DNA of 21,024 bases from Candidatus Falkowbacteria bacterium (GTDB lineage: Bacteria > Patescibacteriota > Patescibacteriia > JACRDY01), in NCBI GenBank assembly GCA_016218485.1, contig JACRDY010000068.1, positions 1 through 21,024 of the forward strand, in the 5' to 3' direction. The notes under the pieces were generated by a model that was not told where the DNA came from, ran no database searches, and saw only the letters and a list, made by a program, of their open reading frames with translations. The position numbers and the translations under genes were made by a program. Positions 639 through 20,931 of the stretch are shown here, one piece after another; position 1 is the first letter of the stretch, and the number at the start of each line of letters is the position of its first letter.

Positions 639-773
639 GCGTATTTACTTCGTAAATGCGCAAATTACGAATTACAAATTACGAATTATTCAGTATCCAG
701 AAAAATCAAGATACCGAAATTCGTCATTCATAATTACTCATTCGTAATTTGCACGTAGCGAAGCGAAGTGCAT
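639..773 (+). repeat. ~135-nt AT-rich insertion in a terminal 16S helix, just upstream of the GGAAGGTGGGGATGACGTCAAGTC block (E. coli ~1160-1175 hairpin). Built from ATTACGAATT-type words and internally palindromic.
   Basis: The flanking stem CCCCCGCCTAAGCG / CATTTAGGCGGGGG encloses tatttacttcgtaaatgcgcaaattacgaattacaaattacgaatt...attcgtcattcataattactcattcgtaatttgc. The equivalent E. coli loop is ~10 nt. The word AATTACGAATTAC recurs in the intergenic spacer at 9316-9350. Confidence 0.5.
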
Positions 774-2038: not shown

Positions 2039-2548
2039 ACCGCCCGTCACGTCAAGGGAGTCGGTAACACCCAAAGTCCACGTTCGTGGGCAAAGGTGGG
2101 ATCGATGACAGGGACGAAGTCGTAACAAGGCATCCGTAGCGGAAGCTGTGGATGGATCACCTCCTTTCTAAGGAGTAACTTCCCGTCAGGCCATTGGCCT
2201 GACGCGGACATACGTGGTCGGTCGGGTTCGATTTATCGGACTCGTTACTCCGGTTAGTTTGAACATATCCCCGTAACCGGCCGCAAGGTCTCTATGGGGT
2301 AAAGGTTTTTATCACTTTTGAGTCGTTAACAATAAAAAATCATCGGCCGATTCGGCGGATGATTTTTTAGATTCAAGATTTAGGAATTAAGAATTAAGAA
2401 TCCAGTGAACGGTTGTTTGAACATAAACACAACCCCACCCTGTCCCTCCCCCTTATGAATAAGGGGGAGAGACTGGTTCGACCATGGACTTCACTAAATT
2501 ATAATTTTAATAGACAAAAACAATCTTAACTGCTAAATTAGTGATACT

Positions 2549-3115: not shown

Positions 3116-3337
3116 TTTTTGAAGTTAAAAAAATCGTTGGCAGTGTGCCGGCGGTTTTTTTAACCAGAGAGATAAGAATTAAGATTAAAGATTTAAGAAT
3201 AAATACACCATTCTTAAATTTTTAATCTTATCCCTTAATTCTCCCGCTACTTGACCAATTACCAATTACCAGTAAGATAAGGGTAGGTTTGTCACTATAC
3301 CGTATAATACGGTGCACCAATAGAGGAGGAGGTCACG

Positions 3338-4612: not shown

Positions 4613-4647
4613 GGGTCAGGAGGGGAAGTTTTTCGCGAAAATTACAG

Positions 4648-4684
4648 GCCGGGTTCGCAAGGACCCGGCTTGATCTATTTTTTA
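4648..4684 (+). terminator. Candidate intrinsic terminator after purD
   Basis: Hairpin gccgggttcgcaaggacccggc followed by tctatttttt. A second imperfect hairpin plus T-run follows at ~4708-4745. Confidence 0.4.
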
Positions 4685-4854
4685 CTGTTTGGTGGCATCC
4701 CTGCTCGACTCACCCCGCACAATGCGGAGTGGGTGGGTTTTTATTGAATTACTTAAATTCTAAATTCAAAATCCTAAATTCCAAATACTTAAATCATAAA
4801 TTCTAAACACGCAATACCGAGTTTAAGATTTTGGATTTAGGTAGTATGATTCAT

Positions 4855-4911
4855 CCAGCACCTTCCAGAATATCCCGCAGCAAGCTGACGGGATATTCTG
4901 GAAGGTGCTGG
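4855..4911. repeat. Perfect long hairpin / palindromic element, copy 1 of the CCAGCACCTT family
   Basis: ccagcaccttccagaatatcccg-cagcaagctgac-gggatattctggaaggtgctgg, a 23-bp perfect stem. It is itself flanked by an inverted pair of AT-rich word-repeat arms (4745-4800 / 4912-4965). Confidence 0.7.
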
Positions 4912-4990
4912 ATTTATTTAGGATTTTGAATTTTAGGTTTATAATTTAATTCTTAGTTATGGGTAAGTCTCATTCTATAAATTTTCAGAG

Positions 4991-5304: not shown

Positions 5305-5325
5305 ACCATGTTTTTAATGATGAAA

Positions 5326-5448
5326 GCCGGGACGCGCTTCACCCGCCCAAATTTAGCTCTCATCATTAATGGTATCCGCGATTACCCACCATCGTGTAAT
5401 CAAAACGGACAACGTTTTTGTACCGAGCTAAATTTGGGCGGGTAAACC
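5326..5448 (-). repeat. Copy 1 of a ~125-nt terminally palindromic structured element (candidate ncRNA or MITE), immediately 5' of tRNA-Pro
   Basis: Terminal inverted repeats CACCCGCCCAAATTTAGCTC ... GAGCTAAATTTGGGCGGGTAAACC (~20 bp) enclose internal hairpins (CAAAACG-gacaa-CGTTTTG; GATTAC...GTAATC). Two further copies at 5756-5879 and 6149-6273 show the same organisation. Confidence 0.7.
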
Positions 5449-5465
5449 AACTGCGCTACGGCCCG
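5447..5465 (-). pseudogene. Partial copy of the tRNA-Pro 5' end (acceptor 5' strand through the D-loop), abutting element copy 1
   Basis: Minus-strand reading: CGGGCCGTAGCGCAGTTGG, identical to the first 19 nt of tRNA-Pro, followed directly by the element's TTTACCCGCC end. Confidence 0.5.
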
Positions 5466-5543
5466 TTAATAACAATTAACAGTTAACAATTAACCAGTAA
5501 CAAACAACCAAATATGCTAGTCAATTGTTAAGCGTTAATTTGT

Positions 5544-5640
5544 TAACTGTTAATTGGTGCCGAGGGGCAGAATTGCCCGCTCGTCTTCGCGAGCGGATCC
5601 GCTCAGGCCGAATGGCCATGAGCGGAAACTGCCGACGCTC
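5544..5640 (-). pseudogene. Partial second copy of the tRNA-Phe 3' portion with a ~50-nt structured insertion in the T-loop, and an encoded CCA
   Basis: Minus-strand reading: ...GGCGTC-GGCAG-TT[TCCGCTCATGGCCATTCGGCCTGAGCGGATCCGCTCGCGAAGACGAGCGG]GCAATT-CTGCC-CCTCGGC-A-CCA. The insert shares CCGCTCAT-GCC-TTCGG-C-T-AGCGGATC with the Gly-copy insert. Confidence 0.5.
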
Positions 5641-5734: not shown

Positions 5735-5755
5735 AGATTGCAAATTATAGTTGTA

Positions 5756-5879
5756 GGCGGGACGCTCTTCACCCGCCCAAATTTAGCTCTAGTAATTAAT
5801 GGTATCTGTGACTCTCTCACGCGCGTGTAATCCAAGCAGATAACGCTTTTGTGCCGAGCTAAATTTAGGCGGGTAAACC
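5756..5879 (-). repeat. Copy 2 of the ~125-nt element, immediately 5' of tRNA-Phe
   Basis: Same terminal inverted repeats (CACCCGCCCAAATTTAGCTC...GAGCTAAATTTAGGCGGGTAAACC). The interior is divergent, but the internal hairpin is kept by different base pairs (AAGC/GCTT versus AAAACG/CGTTTT in copy 1). Confidence 0.7.
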
Positions 5880-5918
5880 AGCCCCGAAGGGGCCCCTTTG
5901 GGGCTGAGCTACCTCGGC
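5880..5918 (-). pseudogene. GC-rich double hairpin plus a 15-nt fragment matching the 5' end of a tRNA-Phe variant
   Basis: Minus-strand reading: GCCGAGGTAGCTCAG-CCCCAAAGGGGCCCCTTCGGGGCTGG. GCCGAGG is exactly complementary to the CCTCGGC acceptor 3' strand of the partial Phe 3' copy at 5544-5640, and not to that of the intact tRNA-Phe (GCCGGGG/CCCCGGC). Confidence 0.45.
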
Positions 5919-6048: not shown

Positions 6049-6066
6049 CTCCGCCCCGCACCAAAA

Positions 6067-6140
6067 TGCGCGTACTTGGATTTGAACCAAGGACCTCGTC
6101 ATTATCAGTGACGCGCTCTAACCAACTGAGCTATACGCGC
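6067..6140 (-). tRNA. tRNA-Ile (anticodon GAT)
   Basis: Reverse complement: GCGCGTA-TA-GCTC-AGTTGGTTA-GAGC-G-CGTCA-CTGATAA-TGACG-AGGTC-CTTGG-TTCAAAT-CCAAG-TACGCGC-A. No encoded CCA. Confidence 0.85.
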
Positions 6141-6148
6141 ATATTGCT

Positions 6149-6273
6149 GCGGGGTGAACGCTCTTCACCCGCCCAAATTTAGCCTTAGTAATTAAGGGTA
6201 ACCGCGATTACTCACCATCGTGTAATCTAAGCGGACAACCTTTTTGTACCGAGCTAAATTTAGGCGGGTAAAC
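6149..6273 (-). repeat. Copy 3 of the ~125-nt element, immediately 5' of tRNA-Ile
   Basis: The terminal inverted repeats and interior are highly similar to copy 1. It is followed at 6274-6313 by the same GC double hairpin and a 5' tRNA fragment GGACGTATAGCTCAG, which pairs with the TACGCCC strand of the partial Ile 3' copy. Confidence 0.7.
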
Positions 6274-6420
6274 CAGCCCCGAAGGGGCCCCTTTGGGGCT
6301 GAGCTATACGTCCGTCATCTAGAGTTTACTGCTAGGGTAGATAAAAATAACTACTCGGCAGTCTAATACAAAACGGTAAAAAAAGCAAGGTACGAGCAGG
6401 CTGATTTAGTCTTAATTTGA

Positions 6421-6463: not shown

Positions 6464-7564
6464 ATGACTCAAAAGAATAAGAAACCCACAGTCATCGTGG
6501 CCATGTCCGGCGGCGTGGATTCGTCTGTCGCGGCCGCTTTACTACAGCGGCAGGGCTATGACGTGCGCGGCGTGCATATCAAGATGTGGTCGGATCCGGA
6601 TATCCCCTGTTTGTTTACTTTTGACCGGATTGACGCCATGAAAGTAGCGATCCAGCTCGGCATTCCTTTCACCACTTGGGATCTGACGCGCGAATACCGC
6701 AGCGCGGTCGTGGACTACATGATCCGCGAGTTTAAGGCCGGTCGGACGCCCAACCCGGACGTGATGTGTAATAGCGAGATCAAGTTCGGGGTGTTTTTGG
6801 ATAAAGTTTTAAAAACGGGCGCGGAGTATTTGGCGACGGGGCATTATGTGAAAAAAGCGCAAAGCGCAAAGCGCAAAGCACAGAGCCAGTCCACGATACA
6901 AAAATTGTATATCGCGGCGGATGGGAATAAGGATCAGAGCTATTTTCTCTGGCGGCTGAATCAGCAGCAGCTGCGGCATAGCCTGTTTCCCCTGGGTGGT
7001 CTGACTAAGCCGCAGGTGCGAGTCCTCGCCAAACAGTTTAAGCTGCCTACCGCTGACAAGCCGGACTCGCAGGGTATCTGCTTCATCGGCGAGATTAACC
7101 TCAAGGATTTCCTGGAACACTACATCCCCCGCCGTCCGGGCACAATCGTGACCACGGACGGCCGCGTACTCGGCCATCATGAGGGTCTCCCCTTCTATAC
7201 CATTGGTCAGCGTGAGGGGCTGGGTCTGGGCGGTGGCATCCCCTACTATGTCGTTGCCAAAAATTTTAAAACCAATCAGCTGATTGTTGGCAGCCGGGGC
7301 GCGGCTGAACTGTTTCTGCCGAGTTTGCGGTTCACCGCCGCCAATTGGCTACTTGGCAGCGAGCCGAAACTGCCTCTGATCTGCCTGGCGCGTATCCGCT
7401 ACCGTCAGCCGCTGGAGCGTTGTCGGGTCAAACGCATCAGCGGTCGCGGCATTCGGGCGATCTATCAAGCGAAATTTACCGAGCCGCAGCGGGCCATTAC
7501 TCCCGGTCAGTCCATTGTGTTGTACAGGAGCGAGGAGATGATCGGGGGCGGGATTATTATTTAG
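6464..7564 (+). CDS. mnmA: tRNA-specific 2-thiouridylase (tRNA (5-methylaminomethyl-2-thiouridylate)-methyltransferase)
   Basis: A 366-aa ORF. PP-loop VAMSGGVDSSV near the N-terminus. Collinear with MnmA throughout (DQSYFL, GICFIGE, ITPGQS..GGGII C-terminus). It contains an ~8-codon in-frame insertion encoded by GCGCAAAGCGCAAAGCGCAAAGCACAGAGC at ~6856-6890. Confidence 0.85.
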   Translation: MTQKNKKPTVIVAMSGGVDSSVAAALLQRQGYDVRGVHIKMWSDPDIPCLFTFDRIDAMKVAIQLGIPFTTWDLTREYRSAVVDYMIREFKAGRTPNPDVMCNSEIKFGVFLDKVLKTGAEYLATGHYVKKAQSAKRKAQSQSTIQKLYIAADGNKDQSYFLWRLNQQQLRHSLFPLGGLTKPQVRVLAKQFKLPTADKPDSQGICFIGEINLKDFLEHYIPRRPGTIVTTDGRVLGHHEGLPFYTIGQREGLGLGGGIPYYVVAKNFKTNQLIVGSRGAAELFLPSLRFTAANWLLGSEPKLPLICLARIRYRQPLERCRVKRISGRGIRAIYQAKFTEPQRAITPGQSIVLYRSEEMIGGGIII

Positions 7565-7700
7565 TCCTTAGTCCATAGTCCCTAGTCCTTAGTCCATAGT
7601 CCTTATTCCATAGTCCTTAGCGTATAGTTTTAGCGTGAAAGCCTCCACTAAGTACTAGGGACTAAGGACTATGGACTATGTATAGGACTATGTACTATTT
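7564..7700. repeat. Palindromic spacer built from TAGTCC/TAGGAC-type 6-9-nt words
   Basis: gtccttagtccatagtccctagtccttagtccatagtcc...actagggactaaggactatggactatgtataggactatg. The two arms are reverse complements of each other. Confidence 0.55.
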
Positions 7701-7817
7701 CCTCTAATTTTGCTATACTAATACTATAGCTATCAGGACATTGACGCTTTTCCAGTCGTGTGCTAACCTATTGGCAAACAAAAGCCCTATGATACGGGTT
7801 TTTTATTTTAAGTCAGT

Positions 7818-7920
7818 CCAGCACCTTTCATCATTTTTATCTAAAATTTGCCATTATATTAGCTAAAATAAGATTAATTATGGTTGATTTATTTTAGATA
7901 AAAATGATGAAAGGTGCTGG
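7818..7920. repeat. Long perfect hairpin, copy 2 of the CCAGCACCTT family, with an AT-rich interior; it ends exactly at the start codon of the next gene
   Basis: ccagcacctttcatcatttttatctaaaat...attttagataaaaatgatgaaaggtgctgg, an ~30-bp perfect stem. Confidence 0.65.
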
Positions 7921-8523
7921 ATGGCTAAAAATATGCAAAAATCACGGATATTGCAAAAACTACGTAAATATTGGAGAAAATTAGGCGCTTTTTTGGTGCA
8001 CATGCATGTGCGTCGGGTTGAATTGGCTGTTTTTGCTGTAATTTTATTTGAATTTTCTTTTCCTCAAGTATCATTAGCTCAAGAATTGCAGGCTCCGGCC
8101 AGCTATCAGACCGAGAGCGTGATGTATGAAACAGTGATTCGGGATGCCGCTCCGGTTATCAGCGACGCGGCTGTATTGGCTGATTTTAATAATAGTCTGC
8201 CAATGGCGGCTGATCGTCAGCCGACCCGTACCATCTGGGTGACGGTAACGGCCTACTCCAGCACTCCGGATCAGACTGACGACAGCCCGTGTATTACGGC
8301 TAACGGGTTTGATGTCTGTGAACACGGGCAGGAGGACGTGATCGCGGCCAATTTTTTGCCCTTTGGTACCACGGTCAAAATGCCGGAGTATTTCGGCGAC
8401 ACAGTCTTTACTGTGCAGGATCGGATGAACGCGCGCTACTACAGCCGCGTTGATGTCTGGATGCAGAGCCGGGAGGCGGCTAAACAATTCGGCGTGCGGA
8501 CGCTTAAGGTTGAGGTTTATTAG
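7921..8523 (+). CDS. Secreted 3D-domain protein (MltA-like fold, cell-wall binding/remodelling; related to YocH/YuiC C-terminal domains)
   Basis: An N-terminal hydrophobic signal/anchor (LAVFAVILFEFSFPQVSLA). The C-terminal region has VTVTAYSSTPDQTDDSPCITANG ... VIAANFLPFGT ... FTVQDRMN...VDVWM, with three spaced Asp residues. The true start may be the internal ATG at 7933. Confidence 0.6.
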   Translation: MAKNMQKSRILQKLRKYWRKLGAFLVHMHVRRVELAVFAVILFEFSFPQVSLAQELQAPASYQTESVMYETVIRDAAPVISDAAVLADFNNSLPMAADRQPTRTIWVTVTAYSSTPDQTDDSPCITANGFDVCEHGQEDVIAANFLPFGTTVKMPEYFGDTVFTVQDRMNARYYSRVDVWMQSREAAKQFGVRTLKVEVY

Positions 8524-8587
8524 CTACAAATAGCGAATAGCACATAGTCAATAGTACATAGCGCTTGAGAAGGGCGTTTTTTTATAT

Positions 8588-8700
8588 GGCTACATTATCA
8601 CATTGCTACATTGCCAAATTGCTAAATTGTCACACTGTTGTGTGGGTTATTTAGCAATTTGGCAATGTAACAGTTTAACAATTTAACAATGTAGCAATTT
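8588..8700. repeat. Large palindrome of ATTGC/ACATTG-type words
   Basis: A perfect 17-bp inverted repeat, ttgccaaattgctaaat / atttagcaatttggcaa, sits inside longer symmetric arms (ctacattatcacattgctacattgcc ... ggcaatgtaacagtttaacaatttaacaatgtagc). Confidence 0.55.
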
Positions 8701-8745
8701 TGCTTTTCCCTTTTACTCCCGCGTGAAATACGGTATAATATTTTT

Positions 8746-9246
8746 ATGCAGCTATTTGTTAAAAAATTCACCAAAAACGGCCTGAAAATAGGTTTTTTTG
8801 TGGTGGCGCTGTGTTTGATGTTGGCGCTGGCATTGCCGGTGCTGGCCGTTACTGGACAGGGTGGTGACACGGGGCAGGGGGATACGAGTGGGCAGGGTAA
8901 TGACACCGGATCGGGTGGTGATACGGGACAAAATGAAGGGGGTAAGGCCAGTATTATATCCCTGGAAGATCCATTGAATGTAAAGACGGATGCAACAGGG
9001 CCATTGTCCAACATAGCTATTGTGCAGGAAATAATTCTCCGTTTGGCTAAATTCCTGATCGCGCCCATCGGCGCTATTGCTTTCCTCTGTTTGGTGATTG
9101 GCGGGTTTTATATGATTTTTTCCGGGGGTAATGAGGAGCGGGTTAAACAGGGCAAAGATATTATTGTCTGGACCGTGGTGGGGATTATCGTGATTTTTAG
9201 CGCCTACGCGGTGATTAATTTTGTGCTGACGGCGGTGAGAGGATAG
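8746..9246 (+). CDS. Secreted small membrane protein with TrbC/VirB2-like conjugative-pilin topology (signal peptide, Gly/Asp/Thr-rich low-complexity segment, two C-terminal TM helices)
   Basis: A 166-aa ORF. Signal peptide FFVVALCLMLALALPVLAVTG, then repeats QGGDTGQGDTSGQGNDTGSGGDTGQNEGG, then two hydrophobic helices separated by GGNEERVKQGKD. TATAAT at 8733-8742. The family assignment rests on topology only. Confidence 0.35.
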   Translation: MQLFVKKFTKNGLKIGFFVVALCLMLALALPVLAVTGQGGDTGQGDTSGQGNDTGSGGDTGQNEGGKASIISLEDPLNVKTDATGPLSNIAIVQEIILRLAKFLIAPIGAIAFLCLVIGGFYMIFSGGNEERVKQGKDIIVWTVVGIIVIFSAYAVINFVLTAVRG

Positions 9247-9478
9247 CACAAAGCTCAGAGCACAAAGCGCAGAGTTCAGAGCGCAAAGCACGTTTCAAAA
9301 GAGCGTCTTTTTTTAATTAGGAATTACTAATTACGAATTACGAATGAGATTACCAAAGAGCGGCTTTTGGCAGGCTAGGAACATGTAACATGTAGCATAT
9401 AGCATGTAACTCCATACAAGCTACACGCTACATGCTACAAGATTTTCTCTCATTTTAAACACTTTTATATACTTTTGA

Positions 9479-10754: not shown

Positions 10755-11753
10755 ATGGAAACAGGAAAAGTCCCATATAGTGAGCCAGGTGAGGTAGATG
10801 CGAAGAAGAAGAAAGATCAATCAGGAGGGAGCATCTACGGCTGGACTATCGCCGGTTTTGCCCTGCTGGCCCTGGTGGTTGTGCTGGTGATCGTGGTAGG
10901 TATCGTGGCGGGGATCGTCGGGGCAATTTCCTGGCTAGCTTTAGGGCTCCTCAGCGTACATATCTCCGCGATTGTACTGCTGGTGGGCTGGCTGTACCGC
11001 CAAAAGGCATTTAGCGCCGCATGGGCAGTGATCTGGGCCGCCATTCTGTTTTTCGGCATCCCAATATGGCTCTTGAAGTATAGTGCCTGGTCGCCTGAGG
11101 CGGCCAAGATGATCAGCGTGTACATTGAGACCGAGGCGGACAAGCAGCGTGAGCTGCCAAACCCGCCGAGTGAGACCTATGAGGAACCAACTTTTCAGGA
11201 CTTCGTCCGTGAGGCCGGAGATCTAGGAGATGGTGAGACCACCACGTTTGAGGAGCCGGCATTTCCGATTGACACGTCAATCCATTGGAAGACCCAGCGA
11301 GGCGTGTGGTGCGTGTACTTTGATCCGAAGACGGATCCGTACCCGTGCCGCGGCAATACCGGCCTGCCCGGTCATGGCGACTTTCGTCTGAAGAACGACG
11401 GGCCGCACTTCACCATCAAGGCCAAGGGGCCGGTGGAGGGGCTGATATTCAGCTACACGGCCAAGACCGGGACTCACCCGGTGCGCAAAGACGACGCGAC
11501 CATCGCGGCCGAGCGCAGGGCCTATGAAGAGAAGGCGGCCGCGATCAAGGACAAGGCCGCGGTTCAAAAAAAGCCGCCGGACGAGTGGTACCAGAATCCA
11601 ATAACATGGATCGTTGTGGCGGTGCTTGCGCTGGTGATCGGCCTGATCATCAGCCGGGTTCGCGCTGGCGGTCGGGTCAAGGCCGCTCAACGTGCGGCAG
11701 ACCAGCAGGCCGTATTGGCACAGTTGGCAAAGGGCGAGGTCACGGTGGAGTGA
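10755..11753 (+). CDS. Hypothetical integral membrane protein (about 4 N-terminal TM helices, a central soluble domain, a C-terminal TM helix), probably co-transcribed with the 9685 gene
   Basis: A 332-aa ORF with an AGGAG RBS. A stable hairpin cgggtcgcgggcttaaacccccgcgacccg with no T-run sits in the 56-nt gap after the upstream gene. Confidence 0.6.
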   Translation: METGKVPYSEPGEVDAKKKKDQSGGSIYGWTIAGFALLALVVVLVIVVGIVAGIVGAISWLALGLLSVHISAIVLLVGWLYRQKAFSAAWAVIWAAILFFGIPIWLLKYSAWSPEAAKMISVYIETEADKQRELPNPPSETYEEPTFQDFVREAGDLGDGETTTFEEPAFPIDTSIHWKTQRGVWCVYFDPKTDPYPCRGNTGLPGHGDFRLKNDGPHFTIKAKGPVEGLIFSYTAKTGTHPVRKDDATIAAERRAYEEKAAAIKDKAAVQKKPPDEWYQNPITWIVVAVLALVIGLIISRVRAGGRVKAAQRAADQQAVLAQLAKGEVTVE

Positions 11754-12132: not shown

Positions 12133-12597
12133 ATGGGCAACACTAATCAACAATTTGAATTATTAGCCATTAAACAAGATTTGGCGGAATTTCGTCAAGA
12201 AAATAACGAACTGTTTTTGGCTATTAAGCAAGATCTAGATCGGATGGCCACCAAGGACGATCTCCAAGGCGTGAAGGACGATCTCCAAGGCGTGAAGGAC
12301 GATCTCCAAGGCGTGAAGGACGATCTCCAAGGCGTGAAGAAGGACTTACATAGGTTCGCCACCAAAGACGACCTATTAGCATTCGCCACCAAAGACGACA
12401 TGGAACATTTTCGGGATGAATTAAAAGAAGAAATTCATCAGACATTTGATGTGCTAATTACCGGGCAGGATAAAATAGTGAAGATACTGATGGATCAGAA
12501 AGCGGAAAACGCGGCCAATCAATCAGCGCACGGACGTTTCCAGACCACGCTGGATACCCACGAACGGAGAATAGGTGTTTTGGAAAATCCTGTTTAG
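12133..12597 (+). CDS. Coiled-coil repeat protein with KDDLQGV heptad repeats
   Basis: A 154-aa ORF with ATKDDLQGV-(KDDLQGV)x3-KKDLHRFATKDDLLAFATKDDMEHF. The heptad periodicity suggests a coiled coil. Confidence 0.6.
   Translation: MGNTNQQFELLAIKQDLAEFRQENNELFLAIKQDLDRMATKDDLQGVKDDLQGVKDDLQGVKDDLQGVKKDLHRFATKDDLLAFATKDDMEHFRDELKEEIHQTFDVLITGQDKIVKILMDQKAENAANQSAHGRFQTTLDTHERRIGVLENPV
12253..12336 (+). repeat. Perfect 4 x 21-nt tandem repeat (aaggacgatctccaaggcgtg) inside the 12133 CDS
   Basis: Four identical consecutive units encoding KDDLQGV. Degenerate units follow (aagaaggacttacat..., accaaagacgacctatta...). Confidence 0.9.
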
Positions 12598-12625
12598 TGT
12601 ATTTGCGGGCAATGGTATAAAATCG

Positions 12626-12654
12626 TCCCCCGATCCATCGGGGGCGGTTTTTTT
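12626..12654 (+). terminator. Intrinsic terminator after the 12133 gene
   Basis: cccccgatccatcggggg + cggttttttt. Confidence 0.65.
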
Positions 12655-12656
12655 AT

Positions 12657-12713
12657 CCAGCACCTTTCAGAATACCCCGTCAGCTTGCCGTGGGGTATGC
12701 TGAAAGGTGCTGG
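12657..12713. repeat. Perfect long hairpin, copy 3 of the CCAGCACCTT family, immediately upstream of polA
   Basis: ccagcacctttcagaataccccg-tcagcttgcc-gtggggtatgctgaaaggtgctgg. It is homologous to copy 1 (4855-4911) with compensatory substitutions on both arms. Confidence 0.7.
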
Positions 12714-12750
12714 ATTTTATTACCCCAAAAATGGTAAAATAGGCCTATCT

Positions 12751-15549
12751 ATGGCTAAGAAAAAGTTAGTAATTATAGATGGCAACGCCCTGATTCACCG
12801 GGCGTTCCATGCATTGCCGCCGACGCTGCGGACCAAGGACGGCACGGTCGTCAACGCCGTATACGGTTTTGCTTTGATTCTTCTCAAAATTTATAAAGAG
12901 CTGAAGCCTGATTATCTCGCCTTGACGTTGGACCGGGCCGCGCCGACATTTCGCCATATTGAGTACACCGAGTACAAGGCGCATCGGATCAAGCAGCCCG
13001 ATGAGCTGTACGCGCAAATTCCACTGGTTAGAGACTTGGCGGGCGCGTTTAATATCCCGACGTACGAGCTGGACGGCTACGAGGCGGATGACCTGATTGG
13101 CACGATTACCGCCAAGACCGACGGCGGTGTCAGGAATATCATTGTTACCGGCGACATGGACACGCTCCAGCTGGTGGATAACGACACTGAAGTCTTCACC
13201 ATGAAGAAAGGGGTCAATGACACGGTCACCTATGATAGTGCCGCCGTGGTCGAGCGCTATGGCCTGCGGCCAGACCAGATGATTGATTACAAAGCGCTGC
13301 GCGGGGACGCTTCAGACAATATCCCGGGCGTGCGGGGAATCGGCGAGAAAACCGCGGTGGAGCTGCTGCAACAGTTTGGGACTTTGGAAAATGTATATAA
13401 AGAAATAAAGAAATTGAGAAATAAAGAAATTACCAGTGTCCGGCCAAGAGTGGCAGAGTTGCTGTTGGAGCATGAGCAGGACGCGCAGATGTCACAGCAT
13501 CTGGCGACGATTGTCCGGGACGCGCCAATTAAGTTTATGATAGAGGACGCGGTAGTGGCCGGGTATGACCAGCAGGCGGTTTTTGACTTATTCCAAAAAC
13601 TGGAATTCAAGTCGCTCTTGAGCAAGATCCCGGGCATGGAAGGCCGGCAGCGTCCCGAGAGTAAAGAGGGGCAGCGGGGGTTGTTTGATAATTCAAAATC
13701 ACAAATTCAAAATAATAAATCCGAAATAAATTCTAAATTCCAAATCCGAAACGGCTACCACTTGCTGGACGATGAGAAGAGTTTTAAAAAGTTTATCGTG
13801 GAACTCAAGAAGCAAAAGTTGATTGTTATTGACACCGAGACCACGGGGTTGGATACGATTACGGATACATTATTGGGGATTGGGTTTTGTTGGAAAGAGG
13901 GGGAAGGATATTATTTAGAAATAAAGAAATTAAGAAATAAAGAAATTGAAAAAGCCATCAGCAGGATTTTATCTGATGAGAAAGTAAAAAAAGTCGGGCA
14001 CAATTTGAAGTTTGATATTGAGGTATTGACGAACGCCGGGTTTACCGTCCGGGGTGTGTATTTTGACACCATGCTCGCCTCCTACCTCCTGGATCCGGGC
14101 TCTCGGGCGCATGACCTGGATACGTTGGCCTTCACCGAGCTTGGCTACCAGATGACGCCGATTGAGCAGCTGATTGGCTTGGGCAAGAGTCAAATTACTT
14201 TAGCCGACGTGGCGGTGGAAGTCGTGGCCGACTACTGCTGCGAGGACGTGGATTATACATTTCGGTTGTATCAAAAGTTAAGTAACGCCATTGAGCAGAG
14301 AAACAGTTTTGGCTTGATGGAAACCATAGAAATGCCGCTCGTTGCCGTGTTAGCCAAAATGGAACTCTTGGGCGTGAAGATTGACATGAAGTTCCTGGGC
14401 CAGCTGGATCGTGAGATTGAGACCACGCGGCAGAAACTAGACAAGAAAATTTTTGCCATGGCAGGCAAAGAATTCAATCTTGATTCACCACTGCAGCTCA
14501 AAGAAATCCTGTTTGAGACGCTGGAAATCCCGACCGAGGGGCTGAAGCGCGGTAAAACCGGTTTCTCCACGGCCGCGGCTGAATTGGACAAAATGCGCGG
14601 GCTGCACCCGATTATTGACTTGATTTCCGAGCACCGGGAGCTGGCCAAACTGCAGTCCACTTACACCCAGGCACTGCCAAAATTGGTTAATAAAAAAACC
14701 GGCCGGGTGCACACCAGCTTTAATCAGACGGTGGCGGCTACTGGTCGGCTGTCTTCGTCAGACCCAAATCTCCAGAACATTCCCATTCGGACGTCATTAG
14801 GCCGCGAGGTGCGCAAGGCCTTCATCGCCGAAAAAGGCTGCCAAATACTGAAAGCCGACTACTCGCAGATTGAGCTGCGGATCGTGGCTAGTCTGGCGCA
14901 AGACAAAGAGATGTTGGCGATTTTCAAGCGCGGGGAAGATATTCATGCCGCTACAGCGGCAGCGATTCACGGCGTGCCCCTGGACAGTGTGACTAAGGAA
15001 ATGCGCTACAGCGCTAAAGAGGTCAACTTCGGCGTGCTCTACGGCATGGGCGCGTACGGCCTGTCGTGGCGCACCGGCATCAGCATGGCTGAGGCCAAAA
15101 ATTTTATTGATAAATATTTTAAGACCTTCTCTGGCGTGAAAAAGTTCGTGGATAGTACGATCAAGTTCGCCCGGCGGGACGGCTACGTGGAGACGCTGTT
15201 TGGCCGCCGCCGCTATCTGCCGGAGATTAATTCAGGCATGGCGCAAGTCAAAAACGCGGCCGAGCGCATGGCCATCAACGCGCCAATTCAGGGCACGGCC
15301 GCGGACTTGATTAAGCTGGCCATGATCGCGCTGGACACAAAGTTAGCGGCTGAATTTACAACAGAAGAAGTAAAGATGATCCTGCAGGTGCATGATGAAT
15401 TGGTGTTTGAGGTAAAGAGCGGTTTAGTAAAAACCGTCGCGCCACTGGTGAAGGATGTGATGGAGAACGTGTACCAGCTGCGCGTGCCGATTGTGGTGGA
15501 CGTGGAGGCGGGGGAGAGCTGGGGGGAGACGGGGGAGGTTAGTTTGTAA
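12751..15549 (+). CDS. polA: DNA polymerase I (5'-3' exonuclease, 3'-5' exonuclease and polymerase domains)
   Basis: Start chosen at MAKKKLVIIDGNALIHRAFHALPP (ATG 12751). The ORF-track start at 12685 lies inside the upstream hairpin. 5'-nuclease motifs are present (GDASDNIPGV.GIGEKTA), as are the 3'-5' exo region (VIDTETTGLD ... YLLDP) and the Pol A family motifs (RRxxKxxNFGxxYG; VHDELVFE). Confidence 0.9.
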   Translation: MAKKKLVIIDGNALIHRAFHALPPTLRTKDGTVVNAVYGFALILLKIYKELKPDYLALTLDRAAPTFRHIEYTEYKAHRIKQPDELYAQIPLVRDLAGAFNIPTYELDGYEADDLIGTITAKTDGGVRNIIVTGDMDTLQLVDNDTEVFTMKKGVNDTVTYDSAAVVERYGLRPDQMIDYKALRGDASDNIPGVRGIGEKTAVELLQQFGTLENVYKEIKKLRNKEITSVRPRVAELLLEHEQDAQMSQHLATIVRDAPIKFMIEDAVVAGYDQQAVFDLFQKLEFKSLLSKIPGMEGRQRPESKEGQRGLFDNSKSQIQNNKSEINSKFQIRNGYHLLDDEKSFKKFIVELKKQKLIVIDTETTGLDTITDTLLGIGFCWKEGEGYYLEIKKLRNKEIEKAISRILSDEKVKKVGHNLKFDIEVLTNAGFTVRGVYFDTMLASYLLDPGSRAHDLDTLAFTELGYQMTPIEQLIGLGKSQITLADVAVEVVADYCCEDVDYTFRLYQKLSNAIEQRNSFGLMETIEMPLVAVLAKMELLGVKIDMKFLGQLDREIETTRQKLDKKIFAMAGKEFNLDSPLQLKEILFETLEIPTEGLKRGKTGFSTAAAELDKMRGLHPIIDLISEHRELAKLQSTYTQALPKLVNKKTGRVHTSFNQTVAATGRLSSSDPNLQNIPIRTSLGREVRKAFIAEKGCQILKADYSQIELRIVASLAQDKEMLAIFKRGEDIHAATAAAIHGVPLDSVTKEMRYSAKEVNFGVLYGMGAYGLSWRTGISMAEAKNFIDKYFKTFSGVKKFVDSTIKFARRDGYVETLFGRRRYLPEINSGMAQVKNAAERMAINAPIQGTAADLIKLAMIALDTKLAAEFTTEEVKMILQVHDELVFEVKSGLVKTVAPLVKDVMENVYQLRVPIVVDVEAGESWGETGEVSL

Positions 15550-15655
15550 GTTCATAAGTTCATTAGTTGGTAAGTTTATTAGTTTATTAGTTGGAAAGTT
15601 TAAAAGTTAACCCCGTCGGATCGCTCTGGCGGGGTCTTGCTGTTCGTGCGGGGGT

Positions 15656-18030: not shown

Positions 18031-18096
18031 TGCCTTCTCCTTGAGCGTGAAAGGGTTATGTTCTTTGTACCATACTAGGGGAAAAGGTCAAGATTA

Positions 18097-18167
18097 GACA
18101 CAGATTACACAGATAAACACAGATGGCACAGATCCGTGTGATCTGTGATTATCTGTGTAATCTGTGT
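18097..18167. repeat. Near-perfect ~70-bp palindrome of CACAGAT-type words, abutting the stop codon of the 18168 gene
   Basis: agacacagattacacagataaacacagatggcacagatc|cgtgtgatctgtgattatctgtgtaatctgtgtct. A second copy, 68/71 identical, is at 20861-20931. Confidence 0.8.
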
Positions 18168-19796
18168 CTAATAGATTTCCTTCTGGTAACACTCCTCACA
18201 GTACACCCGTTCCGGCCGCTCCGGCGCGTACGTCGTCTCAAATTCATTGGTGCAGCCCGCGTTCATGCAGGCGCGGTGGTACAATGTGCGCGGGTTGCGT
18301 TGCTGGAGTCGCGCCAAATGGCGACAGTCAAAGCACTGGCGGGCGATTGGCAGGCCGTGGCTGCGGTAGAATTTCAATTCCTGAGGAATAATTTTGTAGT
18401 CTTTTTTGCAAGTAGTGCAGGCCAGGATTTCGTTGAGAATGGCGTCTGTCACTTGGGTAATGTCAGCTGGTATGTCCGTCAGTGTTTCTCGGCCAAAGGT
18501 GCCCGGCAGCTCATTCTGCCAGAACCAGCCTTTACTCTGGACCTCATCTTTGGTCAGGGGAAAGTACTCCCGCGCGATGGTTTCGTTATAGCAGAACGGG
18601 GACAGGCGGATCGGGAAAAATTCGCCGTACTGGTCAGCTCGCTTCATCTCCTCAATAATCTTTTCTTTCAGTTGCTTATATTCGGTTTCGGAATATTTTT
18701 TGTTCAAAATTTGGTAGGAGCCGTGTTTGAGTCCGGTGCAGCCGAATAAATTTTGACTATAGAAACACTGCCACGAGTAGCTCGTGAATGAGCAGTCCCA
18801 GCAGGCCACCGTCGCAATTTGATATTTACTGTTGACGATGCTGATACAGTTGTAGCTCATTTCGGCTTTTGGCGAATAATTAATATCACTGACCGCTGAC
18901 GCGCCTCGGGGCAGGTTCCAGACGTAGAAGCAGTCTTCCAACTCTTGTGATTCAAAGCAGTGCGCGGCGTTGCGACAGTTATAGAGGTAGTCGCCGGTTG
19001 AGTTCTCGCAGTGGCGGATGCGCGCATATGGCCGCGGCACGGTCAGGCTGAATTGGTAGAATGTTTGATAAAATTTTTCCGGATTAGCTTTGGCTTCCGC
19101 TAACACTTTCGCGCATTCTTCCTTAGTCGCCGGTTTATTGAAAATATAATTTTCTTTGTGGCGCAGGCCGACGCAGCCAATGCAATTCTGGCAGCTGATG
19201 CAATCATAGCAAAAGGCCAGTTCAGATGAATTTTCGCAGTCATTACAATAAATGCCGGAGAAAAGATTTTGGCAGTGGACGCACTGGTAGCAGTTTTGCA
19301 GATCAAAGCCTTGCGCGCAGTCCATGGAGTCAAACGAGTTATTAACAAAATAGGAATAGTAAATATTCTCCCCGGTAACGCCGGAGATGCACATATAGGA
19401 ATCTTTGTAGTAGACCGAGTGCGGGCAGTAGTCGCTGTTTTCGCCGTGCGAGATGATCAGCGCCAGGTGCGGAGTTTTCAGTAGCAGCTCTTTGAATTGT
19501 TCCAGAAATGGTTTAGCTGGATCATAGTCCAGCGCTGGCGCTTGCCACCTGTCGCTCCACCAGCACTCCGGGCAGTACTGGAGGTAGGGTTTGTCTTTGG
19601 CGTAAAAAGAGACAATAGCTTTTTTGCAGAGATCACATTGGCGAGTATAGAGCATTCGTTCATTACGCCAGGCACAGCGAGATCGCTGCCGGCAGTCCGG
19701 GCAGCTTTTTGGCTCGGGCAGATTCAGTTTCACGAAGAAGTCTTTCTCGGCGCTCGTCAGGTCAAATTGTGCGTTGCAGTGTTGGCAGGTGGTCAT
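18168..19796 (-). CDS. Cysteine-rich multi-zinc-ribbon protein, 542 aa with roughly 60 Cys, and homologous N- and C-terminal double-CxxC modules
   Basis: N-terminus C5xxC8...FxxLNLPEPKSC32PDC35RQRSRCAWRNERMLYTRQC54DLC57...YC75PEC78WW. C-terminus CTTCKKDYKIIPQELKFYRSHGLPIARQCFDCRHLARLQQRNPRTLYHRACMNAGC...YCEECY. Both share the skeleton CxxC-F-LP-CxxCR-R-RN-R-LY-R-C-C-YC-EC. The centre has ~20-aa repeats of the form YNC-x3-C-x2-S-x2-L-x2-C. Confidence 0.7.
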   Translation of the reverse strand: MTTCQHCNAQFDLTSAEKDFFVKLNLPEPKSCPDCRQRSRCAWRNERMLYTRQCDLCKKAIVSFYAKDKPYLQYCPECWWSDRWQAPALDYDPAKPFLEQFKELLLKTPHLALIISHGENSDYCPHSVYYKDSYMCISGVTGENIYYSYFVNNSFDSMDCAQGFDLQNCYQCVHCQNLFSGIYCNDCENSSELAFCYDCISCQNCIGCVGLRHKENYIFNKPATKEECAKVLAEAKANPEKFYQTFYQFSLTVPRPYARIRHCENSTGDYLYNCRNAAHCFESQELEDCFYVWNLPRGASAVSDINYSPKAEMSYNCISIVNSKYQIATVACWDCSFTSYSWQCFYSQNLFGCTGLKHGSYQILNKKYSETEYKQLKEKIIEEMKRADQYGEFFPIRLSPFCYNETIAREYFPLTKDEVQSKGWFWQNELPGTFGRETLTDIPADITQVTDAILNEILACTTCKKDYKIIPQELKFYRSHGLPIARQCFDCRHLARLQQRNPRTLYHRACMNAGCTNEFETTYAPERPERVYCEECYQKEIY

Positions 19797-20111: not shown

Positions 20112-20861
20112 ATGTCCACCAAAAATATTCTAGAAGACTTGGGTCTAACCAAAAGCAAGGCTGATGTGTACTTGGCGGCGTTAGCCGTTGGCAGCGGCTC
20201 GGCCCAGGAGATCGCCAATCGGGCGGGTTTACCGCGGACTACTACTCATGAAATTCTGCAGACGCTCGTCGGCATGAGTCTGATTGGTTTCGTGACTAAA
20301 GGCCGGACGCGGATCTACAGCGCCGAGCCGCCGGAGAAGCTCAAAATTTTACTCAAAGAAAAAGAGGCCAGGCTCGAAAAGGCTTTGCCAGAATTGTCGG
20401 CTCTCTTCAACACCAGCGGCATTCGGCCGCGGGTGCGGTTTTACGAAGGTGAGGATGGTATTAAAACAGTGTTTGAAGACACGCTGACCGTCAGCAACAA
20501 GCTGTTGCGCAGTATTCTTTCCATGAAAGACCTGTATGAAATGCCGGGCAAGGATTACGTCAACGCCTACACGCGCCGGCGAATTGCGGCTGGAATAAAA
20601 CTGCGCGTGGTGCGTTCAGAGGGTAAAGAAGTGGAGAAAGTTTGGCCGGCGAGCACTCGAGACAGCCGCGATCTGCATTACGCGCCGGATGATATGTTTT
20701 TCCCGATGACGGTGTATATTTACGACAACAAGCTCGGGCTCATCAGCAGCAAAAAAGAAAACTTCGGCATGATTATTGAGTCGCCGGATCTGTATCAGAC
20801 CATGAAGAATATGTTTGAGGTGATGTGGCAGGTGACGCGGGTGATGAAACCGGTGGATTAG
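20112..20861 (+). CDS. TrmB-family transcriptional regulator (N-terminal winged HTH plus C-terminal effector domain)
   Basis: A 249-aa ORF with the N-terminus LGLTKSKADVYLAALAVGSGSAQEIANRAGLPRTTTHEILQTLVGMSLI, which matches the TrmB HTH pattern (LGLTxxEAxVYLxLLxxGxxTAxEIAxxSGVPRTKVYxVLxxL). Confidence 0.65.
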   Translation: MSTKNILEDLGLTKSKADVYLAALAVGSGSAQEIANRAGLPRTTTHEILQTLVGMSLIGFVTKGRTRIYSAEPPEKLKILLKEKEARLEKALPELSALFNTSGIRPRVRFYEGEDGIKTVFEDTLTVSNKLLRSILSMKDLYEMPGKDYVNAYTRRRIAAGIKLRVVRSEGKEVEKVWPASTRDSRDLHYAPDDMFFPMTVYIYDNKLGLISSKKENFGMIIESPDLYQTMKNMFEVMWQVTRVMKPVD

Positions 20862-20931
20862 ACACAGATTACACAGATAATCACAGATCCGTGTGATCTG
20901 TGATTATCTGTGTAATCTGTATCTAATAGAT
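20861..20931. repeat. Second copy of the CACAGAT-word palindrome
   Basis: agacacagattacacagataatcacagatc|cgtgtgatctgtgattatctgtgtaatctgtatct. It overlaps the TrmB stop codon on one side and abuts the stop of the partial paralog on the other. Confidence 0.8.

Follow-up and report, generated by a model that had tools for sequence, protein, structure and literature searches.

Repeat arrays in the window

The window, i.e. the whole stretch of 21,024 nt of Candidatus Falkowbacteria DNA that was analysed, carries 16S rRNA, a tRNA cluster, mnmA, a 200-aa gene, a pilin-like gene, polA, a 542-aa minus-strand gene and a pair of convergent genes. TRF returned 51 rows in these 21 kb, compared with 8 weak rows in an E. 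coli control of 50 kb, and the 51 rows reduce to 34 non-redundant arrays in which periods 7, 8 and 9 prevail, a very high density of 1.6 arrays per kb. Non-coding DNA holds 18 arrays with units mostly of 7 nt and some of 8-9 nt (Table 1), and higher-order periods of 14, 16 and 24 were also seen. Arrays cover 814 of the 4359 spacer bases (18.7%) and 2.9% of the coding DNA, while 100 dinucleotide shuffles gave a mean of 12.5 spacer bases in arrays (0.3%) and a maximum of 78. The window arrays are made of head-to-tail tandem units of 1-11 nt and exceed the expectation from composition in both the shuffles and the E. coli control.

The repeat pattern listed in the initial annotation proved to be real, all of its words and coordinates being present and far beyond chance, yet it had been overstated on four points. 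The spacers are not almost entirely made of repeats: in the three focal ones TRF cover amounts to 31%, 43% and 39%, and no array was reported in 7 of the 17. Neither are the arrays only intergenic, since the same type lies in the 16S rRNA insertion and in frame in mnmA and polA. About 15 different words occur among the window arrays, and the claim that each spacer uses its own word did not hold: AATTACG is shared by the 16S insertion and the array at 9315, AAGAATT by two spacers, AAAGCGC by the mnmA reading frame and position 9264, and AAATTC-type words by position 4755 and polA.

Table 1. Arrays, palindromes, hairpins and separate terminators in the window (z, fold z score; positions in nt).
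Feature	Position	Strand	Evidence	Remarks
AATTACG array and inverted partner	660-752	+	TRF, inverted pair, z -5.8	Hairpin core of a 145-nt insertion (about 638-782) in 16S rRNA
AAGAATT x3.9	2375-2401	+	TRF	Directly 3' of terminator
AAGAATT/AAGATTA palindrome	3167-3243 (TRF 3174-3203)	.	Inverted pair, z -9.95	
ACCAATT x2.6	3254-3271	.	TRF	After the AAGAATT/AAGATTA palindrome
TAAATTC x7.6	4754-4807; whole element 4754-4947	.	TRF, inverted pairs, fold	Inverse partners at 4822-4842 and 4917-4947; between them TCCAGCACC hairpin (4853-4913)
TAACAAT palindrome	5470-5555	.	TRF, inverted pair, z -6.1	In tRNA cluster
In-frame AAAGCGC x3.7 in mnmA	6854-6879	+	TRF, MnmA alignment	Encodes AQSAKRKAQS at tip of GHY...KDQSY hairpin, a lineage-wide hot spot
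Left arm, TTAGTCC x8.6	7562-7620 (TRF 7561-7620)	+	TRF, inverted pairs, fold z -8.4	Its first TAG serves as stop codon of mnmA (7562-7564)
Right arm, GGACTAW, inverse words, period 7	7647-7698	+	TRF, inverted pairs, fold	Pairs with 7562-7620 in several registers (register test)
Canonical intrinsic terminator, stem and T-run	7780-7806	+		Apart from array hairpin
Hairpin, perfect 31-nt arms, TCCAGCACCTTYCA family	7817-7921	.	Inverted-repeat search	6 family matches vs 0.32 expected; separate element, no word array; right arm runs to ATG of following gene
Single-arm array TAGC/ATAGCNA, TAG per 7 nt	8521-8563	+	Read by eye; fold z -0.6	Begins at stop codon of 200-aa gene; unstructured
Canonical terminator, 7-bp stem and T7	8560-8582	+		
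Palindrome, period-8 words GCTACATT / ATTTAGCA	8583-8703	.	TRF (8589-8634, 8649-8700), z -6.9	
Single-arm array AGCACAA/AGCGCAG, period 7/14	9245-9291	+	TRF, fold, dispersed-repeat match	Begins at stop codon of pilin-like gene; shares word with in-frame mnmA array
AATTACG x4.4	9315-9345	+	TRF	Directly 3' of weak T7 terminator; shares word with 16S insertion array (92%)
Palindrome AACATGT x4.4 / TACAAGC x3.9	9380-9441 (TRF 9380-9410, 9415-9441)	.	TRF, z -5.0	
Three in-frame AT-rich polA arrays	13396-13431, 13690-13751, 13912-13947	+	TRF, dispersed-repeat match	First and third 33/36 identical, in two loops
Single-arm period-8/24 array AGTTTATA	15539-15608	+	TRF, fold	Spans polA stop codon; GC-rich hairpin next at 15610-15635
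CACAGAT palindrome, 40-nt arms, no loop	18093-18172 (TRF 18091-18167)	.	z -12.6	Adjoins stop codon of 542-aa minus-strand gene
CACAGAT palindrome, duplicate	20857-20927 (TRF 20862-20920)	.	z -10.9	Fills entire gap of convergent genes (20861/20931), both stop codons in outer words; 97% identical to 18093-18172, from which it differs by exactly one 9-nt unit

Arrays in related Patescibacteria and in MnmA

The window was compared with 160 related Patescibacteria loci (2.1 Mb), the nearest relative having only 64% MnmA identity. Period 7 was the modal repeat period in these loci as in the window, and two relatives (L047 and L055) were equally array-rich, with period 7 dominant in both. Confinement to this contig, a possibility raised with the initial annotation, was thus not observed; the arrays belong to the Patescibacteria/CPR lineage and are not contig-specific. 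Across the loci, 118 different canonical words were counted in 211 arrays.

Array density in the related loci was 0.27 per kb in spacers and about 0.04 per kb in coding DNA without mnmA (0.083 with mnmA), and MnmA stood out with 0.52 arrays per kb, at least 10-fold over most other gene families. Called coding DNA held 154 period-7 arrays, 92 of them in mnmA, and fewer with periods 6 (82) or 9 (38). The 155 MnmA genes contain 91 in-frame arrays of period 7, placed at two loop sites of low occupancy, and in-frame heptamer arrays at the two loop tips were found in 58 of the 155 genomes, mostly with different words. The commonest word, AAACTAC, corresponds to the native codons of the YKLL strand beside the MnmA insertion site. 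LeuRS and PolA also bear arrays (LeuRS in relatives).

Orthologous arrays of related genomes kept a constant length with units altered in concert; in L008, L014, L090 and L096, a 15-aa insert is retained while its word shifts between CAAAATT, CAAAAAT and CAAAATG across several units. Stop-containing sense-strand words were depleted in coding arrays (43 vs 73 expected), and in L055 the sole unit with a potential in-frame TAA reads TAT. As in phase-variable loci, non-triplet SSRs thus lie inside reading frames (mnmA 6854-6879, polA and the relatives' LeuRS); all 155 full-length MnmA frames were in frame, in a set of intact ORFs over most of the query that cannot reveal off-phase alleles.

Comparison with known repeat families

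In most prokaryotic genomes heptanucleotides are the most abundant class of long SSRs (LSSRs), for which polymerase slippage is the suggested origin (Mrazek, Guo and Shah 2007, in the account of that work given by PMC4679880 and PMC4692102). As described there, LSSRs resemble the window arrays in their tandem units of 5-11 nt, with 7 nt the commonest, and in their intergenic enrichment. The window arrays differ from the published LSSRs by their density and by the pairing of most spacer arrays with an inverse array. The published rule that coding units are divisible by three is not followed here either, heptamers being common inside reading frames. No report of heptamer LSSRs in CPR/Patescibacteria was found in the literature. 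The repeat class itself is known (Mrazek et al. 2007, cyanobacterial STRR, Xanthomonas), and the form that it takes here is unusual.

Word-specific heptamer families comprise the cyanobacterial STRR, GGGAATC of Xanthomonas and GGGGAYT of Nostoc (PMC4692102), and TAACTGA of Beggiatoaceae (PMC4679880). These families are likewise intergenic heptamer arrays with lengths that vary among close relatives, and some Xanthomonas GGGAATC arrays form inverted pairs between convergent genes like the window arrays (PMC4692102). Such families employ one or a few words genome-wide, with proposed word-specific roles in G-quadruplex formation and translational control, whereas nearly every site has its own word in the lineage of the window. 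With about 15 words in the window and 118 in the 211 arrays across loci, membership in a word-specific family was rejected.

The Borg tandem repeats (PMC9879509), on the other hand, are pervasive, locus-unique and A-biased, lie in spacers and reading frames, add hydrophilic or disordered protein loops and evolve fast, as is the case here. Their in-frame units are always divisible by three and near-perfect (PMC9879509), whereas the arrays described here are short, degenerate runs of about 4 units, each of 7 nt, and many of them stand in inverted pairs. Considering the excess of period 7 over periods 6 and 9 in coding DNA (154 vs 82 and 38), repeats of the Borg type were also rejected.

Rickettsia palindromic elements and palindromes of REP/MITE type form families with a conserved consensus, and Rickettsia-type elements are hairpin-forming insertions that occupy spacers and also, without loss of frame, permissive sites of conserved proteins and RNAs. 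The window arrays are like the latter in siting and hairpins but have no common consensus or termini. MITE/REP-like mobile palindromes were rejected, a shared consensus with terminal inverted repeats being absent, and the dispersed-repeat search found no palindrome in common except the segmental duplication of 18093 and 20857. The family of tiny mobile palindromes previously put forward as an origin was therefore not supported, no sequence, termini or flanks being shared outside that duplication. What recurs above chance at unrelated sites of one genome is identical arrays, not palindromes.

A probable slippage origin of the arrays

The arrays are probably heptanucleotide LSSRs which arose through replication slippage and inverted copying and were kept where insertions are tolerated, making them mutational by-products rather than designed elements. 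By analogy with what is known of SSRs, a short seed would be expanded into a tandem array, and the array remodelled, by replication slippage, and fold-back or template-switch copying would add the inverse array and so generate a slippery hairpin; parallel expansion of a complementary seed could alternatively provide the inverse array. The arrays survive only at insertion-tolerant places, namely the stretch from stop codon to terminator, that from terminator to next promoter, a 16S helix tip and the exposed tips of protein loops, where they are retained in frame with an A-rich sense strand and with loss of in-frame stop codons. Turnover appears to be fast, units being gained, lost and changed in concert, which would leave each site with its own word.

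Slippage plus template switching, one of the two generating mechanisms suggested at the outset, is thus favoured by the palindrome copies that are 97% identical and one 9-nt unit apart, by the higher-order periods, by the constant lengths with concerted units in relatives and by the purging of stop codons from in-frame copies. The match of AAACTAC to the native YKLL codons was counted for slippage as visible local seeding, and so was the selective filter seen in the MnmA frames, the stop depletion, the L055 TAT and the LeuRS and PolA arrays. Counted against it were the length mode of period-7 arrays (27-33 nt), plain birth-and-death slippage predicting monotonic lengths; the recurrence of a word at distant sites, in some cases with the same order of unit variants, which purely local slippage does not predict; the array excess in MnmA, which calls for an unusually permissive loop or something more; and the higher frequency of inverted partners in spacers than in coding DNA. 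The Lys/Asn/Gln-rich low-complexity insertions of CPR proteins and the CPR rRNA expansion segments may have one common mutational origin.

Preferred array size and re-use of words

Another reading, considered unlikely, is that the arrays are actively written or copied, with blocks of about 31 nt (4 units) being inserted and the words of the genome re-used at new sites. It is consistent with the preferred size, common to coding and non-coding DNA: near-perfect period-7 arrays peak at exactly 31 nt, and counts drop steeply between 4.x and 5.x copies, in MnmA as in other coding DNA and spacers, while for periods 6, 8 and 9 the length counts only decay. In coding DNA, however, the 4-unit mode may partly reflect frame preservation, one unit and three added units giving four. 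The same word was found at distant sites of one genome in 14 pairs vs 4.7 +/- 2.0 expected, none of 2000 permutations reaching 14. In L123, a 23-nt array recurs without a difference in two unrelated genes, its unit variants, their order and the reading frame all being the same; in L055, LeuRS and MnmA share a 34-nt block encoding LNAKRYTLNAG; and the two polA loops of the window listed as near-identical (Table 1) also speak for copying. Gene conversion of same-word arrays together with composition and codon constraints could nevertheless explain part of this sharing. Moreover, in same-word arrays the array alone is shared, without conserved termini and with unrelated flanks, the number of words is large (118 in 211 arrays), and no candidate writing or copying enzyme adjoins the arrays in their window neighbourhood.

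Such writing could be the work of templated insertion in the course of break repair, of a micro-mobile element or of an enzyme that carries a 7-nt template. Active writing overlaps with the slippage origin and may supplement rather than replace it. That Patescibacteria possess a dedicated, non-slippage process, writing about 31 nt at a time as blocks of roughly four 7-nt units and transferring existing words of the genome to new sites, is likewise improbable. Its target sites would be in-frame positions of MnmA, LeuRS and PolA, which are tRNA- or DNA-handling enzymes, and rRNA helix tips; in a variant of it, the 7-nt arrays of mnmA may be frame-switching contingency repeats for a tRNA-modification enzyme. 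If true, this would add a novel type of micro-mobile DNA or of templated micro-insertion.

Why prokaryotic LSSRs favour a 7-nt unit has been a question since 2007, and the present lineage supplies dense natural data on that preference, two shared loop tips of MnmA having independent arrays by the hundreds and further arrays lying in rRNA, operon gaps and spacers. Jointly the arrays display a sharp preferred size and within-genome re-use of words, which allows slippage and templated copying to be modelled or to be tested in vitro.

Hairpins and the terminator question

An inverted partner was defined as an inverted 9-mer at most 150 nt away. Among the non-coding arrays of the window, 14/18 (78%) have one, vs 0/18 control positions; in the relatives, the figures are 39/133 (29%) vs 10/133 in spacers and 33/322 (10%) vs 16/322 in coding DNA, a bare enrichment. 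Paired arrays fold into long hairpins with stems of 25-45 bp and z scores of -4.3 to -12.6. The large palindromes of the initial annotation do not extend to the single-armed post-stop arrays 8521-8563, 9245-9291 and 15539-15608, which are unstructured (z -0.6 to -2.0). A perfect inverted repeat given as 17 bp is indeed present, and its length is 21 bp (8607-8627 pairing with 8649-8669).

The spacer-over-coding excess of inverted partners could reflect selection for hairpins in non-coding DNA, and the palindromic arrays might then be selected RNA elements for which repeats are merely an easy route to long stems, serving in termination without a U-tract, protection of mRNA 3' ends or as RNase III sites between cistrons; this reading of the arrays and these roles are improbable. 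In addition to the stability of the hairpins, it would account for the palindrome that is the only element between the convergent genes, both stop codons included, for the single strict mirror register of the CACAGAT palindromes and for the inverted arrays that bracket the whole rplP cistron inside a ribosomal-protein operon of L047. The palindrome at 8583-8703 (T-rich tail on 8589-8698) is the sole one with such a tail.

Intrinsic terminators are also stem-loops just 3' of genes, but the window stems are long, rich in AT and composed of repeats. A T-tract (at least 5 T in the 8 nt past the stem) follows one of the 9 palindromes and is missing from the other 8, so that they were rejected as terminators of the type with a GC-rich stem and a U-tract. 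Most spacers between co-directional features already hold a canonical terminator with A-tract, stem and T-tract (eight in six spacers: 2333-2369, 3128-3161, 4645-4686, 4703-4743, 7780-7806, 8560-8582, 9285-9314 and 12620-12654), and the array hairpins are therefore redundant there and not needed as terminators. On the sense strand the arm mismatches (G:T 5, A:C 15, other 15) are not biased towards G:U, and the heptamer palindromes allow several pairing registers of about equal quality. Many hairpins lie between terminator and next promoter and may be untranscribed, and the same arrays occur in 16S rRNA, in reading frames and in the ribosomal-protein operon. For the most part, the suggested function as bidirectional terminators or insulators was thus not supported, and an RNA 3' hairpin role, if any, would be secondary. 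For CPR annotation, long hairpins after genes should not be taken as terminators by default.

Improbable readings: periodic binding sites and assembly artefacts

It is very unlikely that the arrays serve as periodic binding sites of a DNA- or RNA-reading protein with a 7-nt step and about four protomers per array, such as a cold-shock or S1-type OB fold or a HutP-like ring on UAG-N4 repeats. The fixed 7-nt period and the size of about 4 units would suit such a protein, three focal arrays have TAG or TAA every 7 nt from the stop codon on, and for the TAACTGA repeats of Beggiatoa candidate proteins that bind heptamers have been considered (PMC4679880). However, no single sequence-specific binder fits 118 words in 211 arrays, the stop content of the words equals the expectation from composition (81/89 vs 75 and 13/13 vs 11.4), and arrays lie in frame in proteins and within rRNA. 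An artefact of sequencing or assembly in low-complexity DNA can practically be dismissed, since no sign of it was found beyond the general caution on repeat mis-assembly, and the same array type recurs across many assemblies that were made independently, by different projects and with different assemblers. Long conserved genes are moreover kept in frame by arrays at two constant loop positions, and each array is short (20-70 nt), well under read length.

Tandem arrays and their pairing in the window

Every word and coordinate listed in the initial annotation was found in the sequence. Tandem Repeats Finder (TRF) returned 51 rows for the window, corresponding to 34 non-redundant arrays, and the non-coding ones have periods of 7 (11 arrays), 8 (3 arrays) and 9 nt (4 arrays). 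Arrays occupy 814 of 4359 spacer bases (18.7%) versus 2.9% of coding DNA; spacer coverage in dinucleotide shuffles averaged 12.5 bases with a maximum of 78, and 50 kb of E. coli analyzed as control gave 8 weak TRF rows. An inverted 9-mer partner is present at most 150 nt away for 14 of the 18 non-coding arrays compared with 0 of 18 control positions, and the hairpins formed by paired arrays are long, with fold z-scores of -4.3 to -12.6.

The pattern reported initially is real, and its description was overstated in part. Spacers are not almost entirely composed of repeats, as coverage of the focal spacers (around 7564-9450) is 31%, 43% and 39% and 7 of 17 spacers are without array. Many arrays do form large palindromes, but those at 8521-8563, 9245-9291 and 15539-15608 are single-armed, unstructured and begin at stop codons; the inverted repeat given as perfect over 17 bp is present but has a length of 21 bp (8607-8627 with 8649-8669). 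Likewise, the word differs at almost every site but several words are common to more than one, and the spacers are array-rich but arrays also occur in 16S rRNA, mnmA and polA.

Occurrence in related Patescibacteria

The closest MnmA in both large collections scanned is 64% identical and an exact TrmB look-up in them gave no match; with no close relative there, turnover was studied only through deeper relatives and an internal duplication. The comparison set consisted of 160 loci (2.1 Mb) fetched via MnmA, all titled Patescibacteria. Their modal tandem-repeat period is 7, and two of them (L047 and L055) equal the window in array richness. With genes called by a crude longest-ORF method, so that the coding/spacer split is approximate, 67 period-7 arrays fall in spacers, called coding DNA holds 154 arrays of period 7 versus 82 of period 6 and 38 of period 9, and an inverted partner is present for 39 of 133 spacer arrays (control 10) versus 33 of 322 coding arrays (control 16). 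The array pattern is lineage-wide.

Arrays within rRNA and protein-coding genes

An AATTACG array and its inverse form the core of the 145-nt insertion in 16S rRNA. Of the three arrays in polA, two are 33/36 identical and both are translated as EIKKLRNKEI. In L047, arrays occupy the gaps between rpsC, rplP, rpmC and rpsQ within the ribosomal-protein operon. At 10798-11370 of this Parcubacteria relative, rplP is flanked by inverse arrays, in the order GCTTTTTA, TAAGCTA, rplP, TAGCTTG, CTAAAAAG, which could pair across ~420 nt of mRNA; the rpmC-rpsQ and rpsQ-rplN gaps are array-filled as well.

MnmA provides a natural experiment, with at least one period-7 array in 58 of 155 genes (91 arrays in total) and a density of 0.52 arrays per kb, followed by LeuRS with 0.15-0.24 and most other families with 0-0.05. 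The arrays are concentrated at a hairpin tip between motifs GHY and KDQSY and in a loop at window residues about 318-337. At the GHY-KDQSY site, 39 sequences show the basal length of 23 residues and the others carry insertions of 3-65 residues; those of 8-25 residues are mostly recognisable heptamer arrays whose word differs in nearly every genome, and in one locus (L001) the insertion is a palindromic array pair within the reading frame. MnmA arrays are in frame with an A-rich sense strand, giving peptides rich in Lys/Asn/Gln/Ser. Words with a sense-strand stop are scarcer than expected in coding arrays (43 vs 73), and in the CTAAACG array of L055 the lone unit with a would-be in-frame TAA reads CTATACG.

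Other sequences were observed at this site. In the clade of L128, L073, L047, L144, L160, L124 and L088, the position after GHY is occupied by a GC-rich stem that has a TTCG loop and is translated as ARLRRE (GCCCGCCTTCGGCGGG). An AAATCCN array comes immediately after it, and in L073 and L047 this array is interrupted by an additional GC-rich insertion.

Turnover and origin of the arrays

A 97%-identical segmental duplication (18092-18269 and 20856-21024) covers the CACAGAT palindrome and, upstream of it, the Cys-rich 542-aa gene at its 3' end; the start of the duplication coincides exactly with the palindrome's outer edge. The palindrome at 20857-20927 is a single 9-nt unit shorter than that at 18093-18172, and it supplies TrmB, the convergent gene, with its stop codon. 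MnmA genes of the related genomes L008, L014, L090 and L096 keep a 15-residue insert length while several units are altered in parallel, and many arrays show higher-order TRF periods of 14, 16 and 24. The commonest word, AAACTAC, corresponds to the native codons of the YKLL strand adjoining the MnmA insertion site, an indication of local seeding.

In the best-supported reading, the arrays are heptanucleotide long simple-sequence repeats (LSSRs), which would arise by replication slippage, with inverse arrays produced by inverted (fold-back or template-switch) copying, and which would persist wherever insertions are tolerated. Slippage plus template switching, one of two origins proposed initially, is the favoured mechanism. 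The insertion-tolerance filter and the turnover of arrays are observed directly, and slippage and inverted copying are what we infer behind them.

Two properties, the size mode of the arrays and the re-use of words within genomes, are unaccounted for by this simple model. Period-7 array length has its mode at 27-33 nt and near-perfect arrays peak at 31 nt, the drop from 4.x to 5.x copies being 49 to 7 in MnmA, 21 to 3 in other coding DNA and 31 to 5 in spacers; counts for periods 6, 8 and 9 only decay. The 22 arrays with stops in all six frames likewise peak at 4.x. Quantisation of copy number by frame (4, 7, 10 units), which is seen in MnmA with 49 arrays at 4.x and 5 at 7.x, was considered as a possible proof that coding arrays grow by slippage; it is not decisive because spacers have the same 4.x mode.

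Same-word pairs more than 300 nt apart within one genome number 14, compared with 2.3 by plain permutation and 4.7 +/- 2.0 when locus GC and word GC are preserved (0 of 2000 permutations reach 14). Such pairs have the array alone in common, with unrelated flanks, and some carry unit variants in matching order. In L123, 23 identical nt in the same frame are present in two unrelated genes, those of a 1160-aa protein and MnmA (6053-6077 and 10828-10850), and in L055 a common 34-nt block in the likewise unrelated LeuRS and MnmA genes (374-403 and 7192-7221) encodes LNAKRYTLNAG in the same frame in both; the near-identical pair of arrays in the window's polA is a further case. Words may be copied to new sites from a template, and gene conversion between arrays could be behind part of the re-use. 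There is a small chance that the 31-nt preferred size and within-genome copying reflect something more novel.

A family of mobile palindromes, the other origin proposed initially, is unsupported as stated, since comparison of the palindromes revealed no common sequence, termini or flanks apart from the segmental duplication, and that of same-word arrays no common termini or flanks. Loops of 7 nt lie beyond the usual range of MutS. Loss of mismatch repair as the cause was set aside on a 21-kb contig; MutS/MutL are missing from Saccharibacteria and present in other CPR (PMC8406219).

Spacer anatomy and transcription termination

The focal spacers all have one layout. After the stop codon, sometimes with an array at or a few bases from it, comes a canonical A-tract/stem/T-tract terminator (see table); an array palindrome, a single array or several arrays follow, and then a promoter-like site and the next gene. 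Array hairpins, many of them between terminator and next promoter, are thus extra to the real terminators. One of nine palindromes (8589-8698) has at least five T in the next 8 nt. Mismatches between palindrome arms comprise 5 G:T, 15 A:C and 15 others, showing no wobble-pair excess for a sense transcript, and RNA-level selection is therefore unsupported by this wobble-bias test. In the heptamer palindromes, several alternative registers offset by 7-8 nt give pairing of about equal quality; a single mirror register is clearly best in both CACAGAT palindromes. Rfam searches at gathering threshold recovered rRNA, tRNAs and one intron domain only, and at E <= 1 the spacers matched nothing but generic hairpins of miRNA precursors, which score far below threshold. 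The arrays in 16S rRNA, mnmA, polA and the ribosomal-protein operon are not explained by a role as terminator or insulator. Consequently, the function suggested in the initial annotation is unsupported as stated.

The focal arrays display TAG or TAA at 7-nt spacing from the stop codon onward. This pattern, suggestive of spare stops in every frame or of a UAG-N4 binding site, was rejected as a special property of the words since letter-shuffled words are nearly equal in stop content (81/89 observed vs 75.1; 13/13 vs 11.4).

Relation to known repeat systems

The LSSR class itself is already known. As relayed in two later papers, units of seven nucleotides make up the most abundant class of long SSRs in the majority of prokaryotic genomes, and slippage of the polymerase has been proposed to cause them (Mrazek et al. 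2007, via PMC4679880, PMC4692102). Heptamer arrays, including inverted pairs, occur in Xanthomonas and Nostoc (PMC4692102), and heptamer arrays are also known from Beggiatoaceae (PMC4679880); in Borg elements, as here, both spacers and reading frames contain tandem repeats unique to their locus (PMC9879509). Repeats within reading frames of other systems are reported to have units divisible by three (PMC4679880, PMC9879509), whereas 7-nt units are abundant there in the present lineage. Full-text literature searches gave no report of such arrays for CPR or Patescibacteria, and the lineage is therefore counted as new. Also new are the array density, the pairing as register-degenerate hairpins with a word differing at almost every site, and the plentiful 7-nt units in reading frames.

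Other features of the window

Annotated features of the window
Feature	Position	Remark
16S rRNA, 3' two-thirds	1-2170	16S 3' end resumes near 2041
145-nt insertion in 16S rRNA		model position about 1158
Intervening sequence (intron) in 16S rRNA		~1 kb, after model position about 1390
Rfam group-II-D1D4-1 match	1370-1483	in 16S intron
LAGLIDADG ORF	1400-2005	in 16S intron
HD-domain gene, purD, four-tRNA cluster (minus strand), mnmA		after 16S
AAAGCGC x3.7 array	6854-6879	in mnmA, in frame
200-aa gene, T4SS-pilin-like gene, SPFH gene, tRNA-Cys, polA		further genes
Small minus-strand genes		GC-rich block, after polA
542-aa Cys-rich gene, TrmB-type regulator, start of second 542-aa gene copy		window end
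Canonical terminator	2333-2369
Canonical terminator	3128-3161
Canonical terminator	4645-4686
Canonical terminator	4703-4743
Canonical terminator	7780-7806
Canonical terminator	8560-8582
Canonical terminator	9285-9314	weak
Canonical terminator	12620-12654

GC skew is positive over the entire window. Between 15600 and 18030, GC is raised (0.56-0.62), AT skew is negative and arrays are absent; this block contains three or four small genes, all on the minus strand and with N-termini like those of lipoproteins, that share the motif GCGGCGCAGCCGTTG (16125, 17045, 17981), and none of them has a Pfam match.

Perfect or near-perfect hairpins at 4853-4913, 7817-7921 and 12655-12715 have common outer arms, ATCCAGCACCTT[TC]CA...GGTGCTGGAT, and interiors that differ between the three copies by compensating changes. 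The pattern has 6 matches versus 0.32 expected, and is absent from the 160 related loci. In the 7817-7921 hairpin, the right arm runs up to the ATG of the 200-aa gene and includes that gene's likely ribosome-binding site. These hairpins may belong to a small family resembling MITEs, or may act as an operator. Another hairpin element of ~110-150 nt, CACCCGCCCAAATTTAGCTC...GAGCTAAATTTGGGCGGGTAAACC, is present in three copies (5316-5467, 5746-5911, 6142-6306), each immediately upstream of a tRNA gene on the minus strand (for Pro, Phe and Ile) and followed by a duplicated piece of a tRNA 5' end. It has no Rfam match at gathering threshold and resembles either a tRNA-associated insertion that duplicated its target or an element derived from a tRNA.

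A 21-nt repeat, AAGGACGATCTCCAAGGCGTG, of a class distinct from the heptamer arrays, occurs in 4.1 copies with 100% identity at 12253-12339 within a 154-aa ORF (12133-12597), giving KDDLQGV repeats in the protein. A spacing of 7 nt separates the promoter-like TTTACT-16-TATAAT at 8712-8746 from the start codon (ATG) of the pilin-like gene, which suggests a leaderless mRNA. The stop codon is TAG in 8 of the 16 ORFs checked in the window, unusually high for a bacterium.
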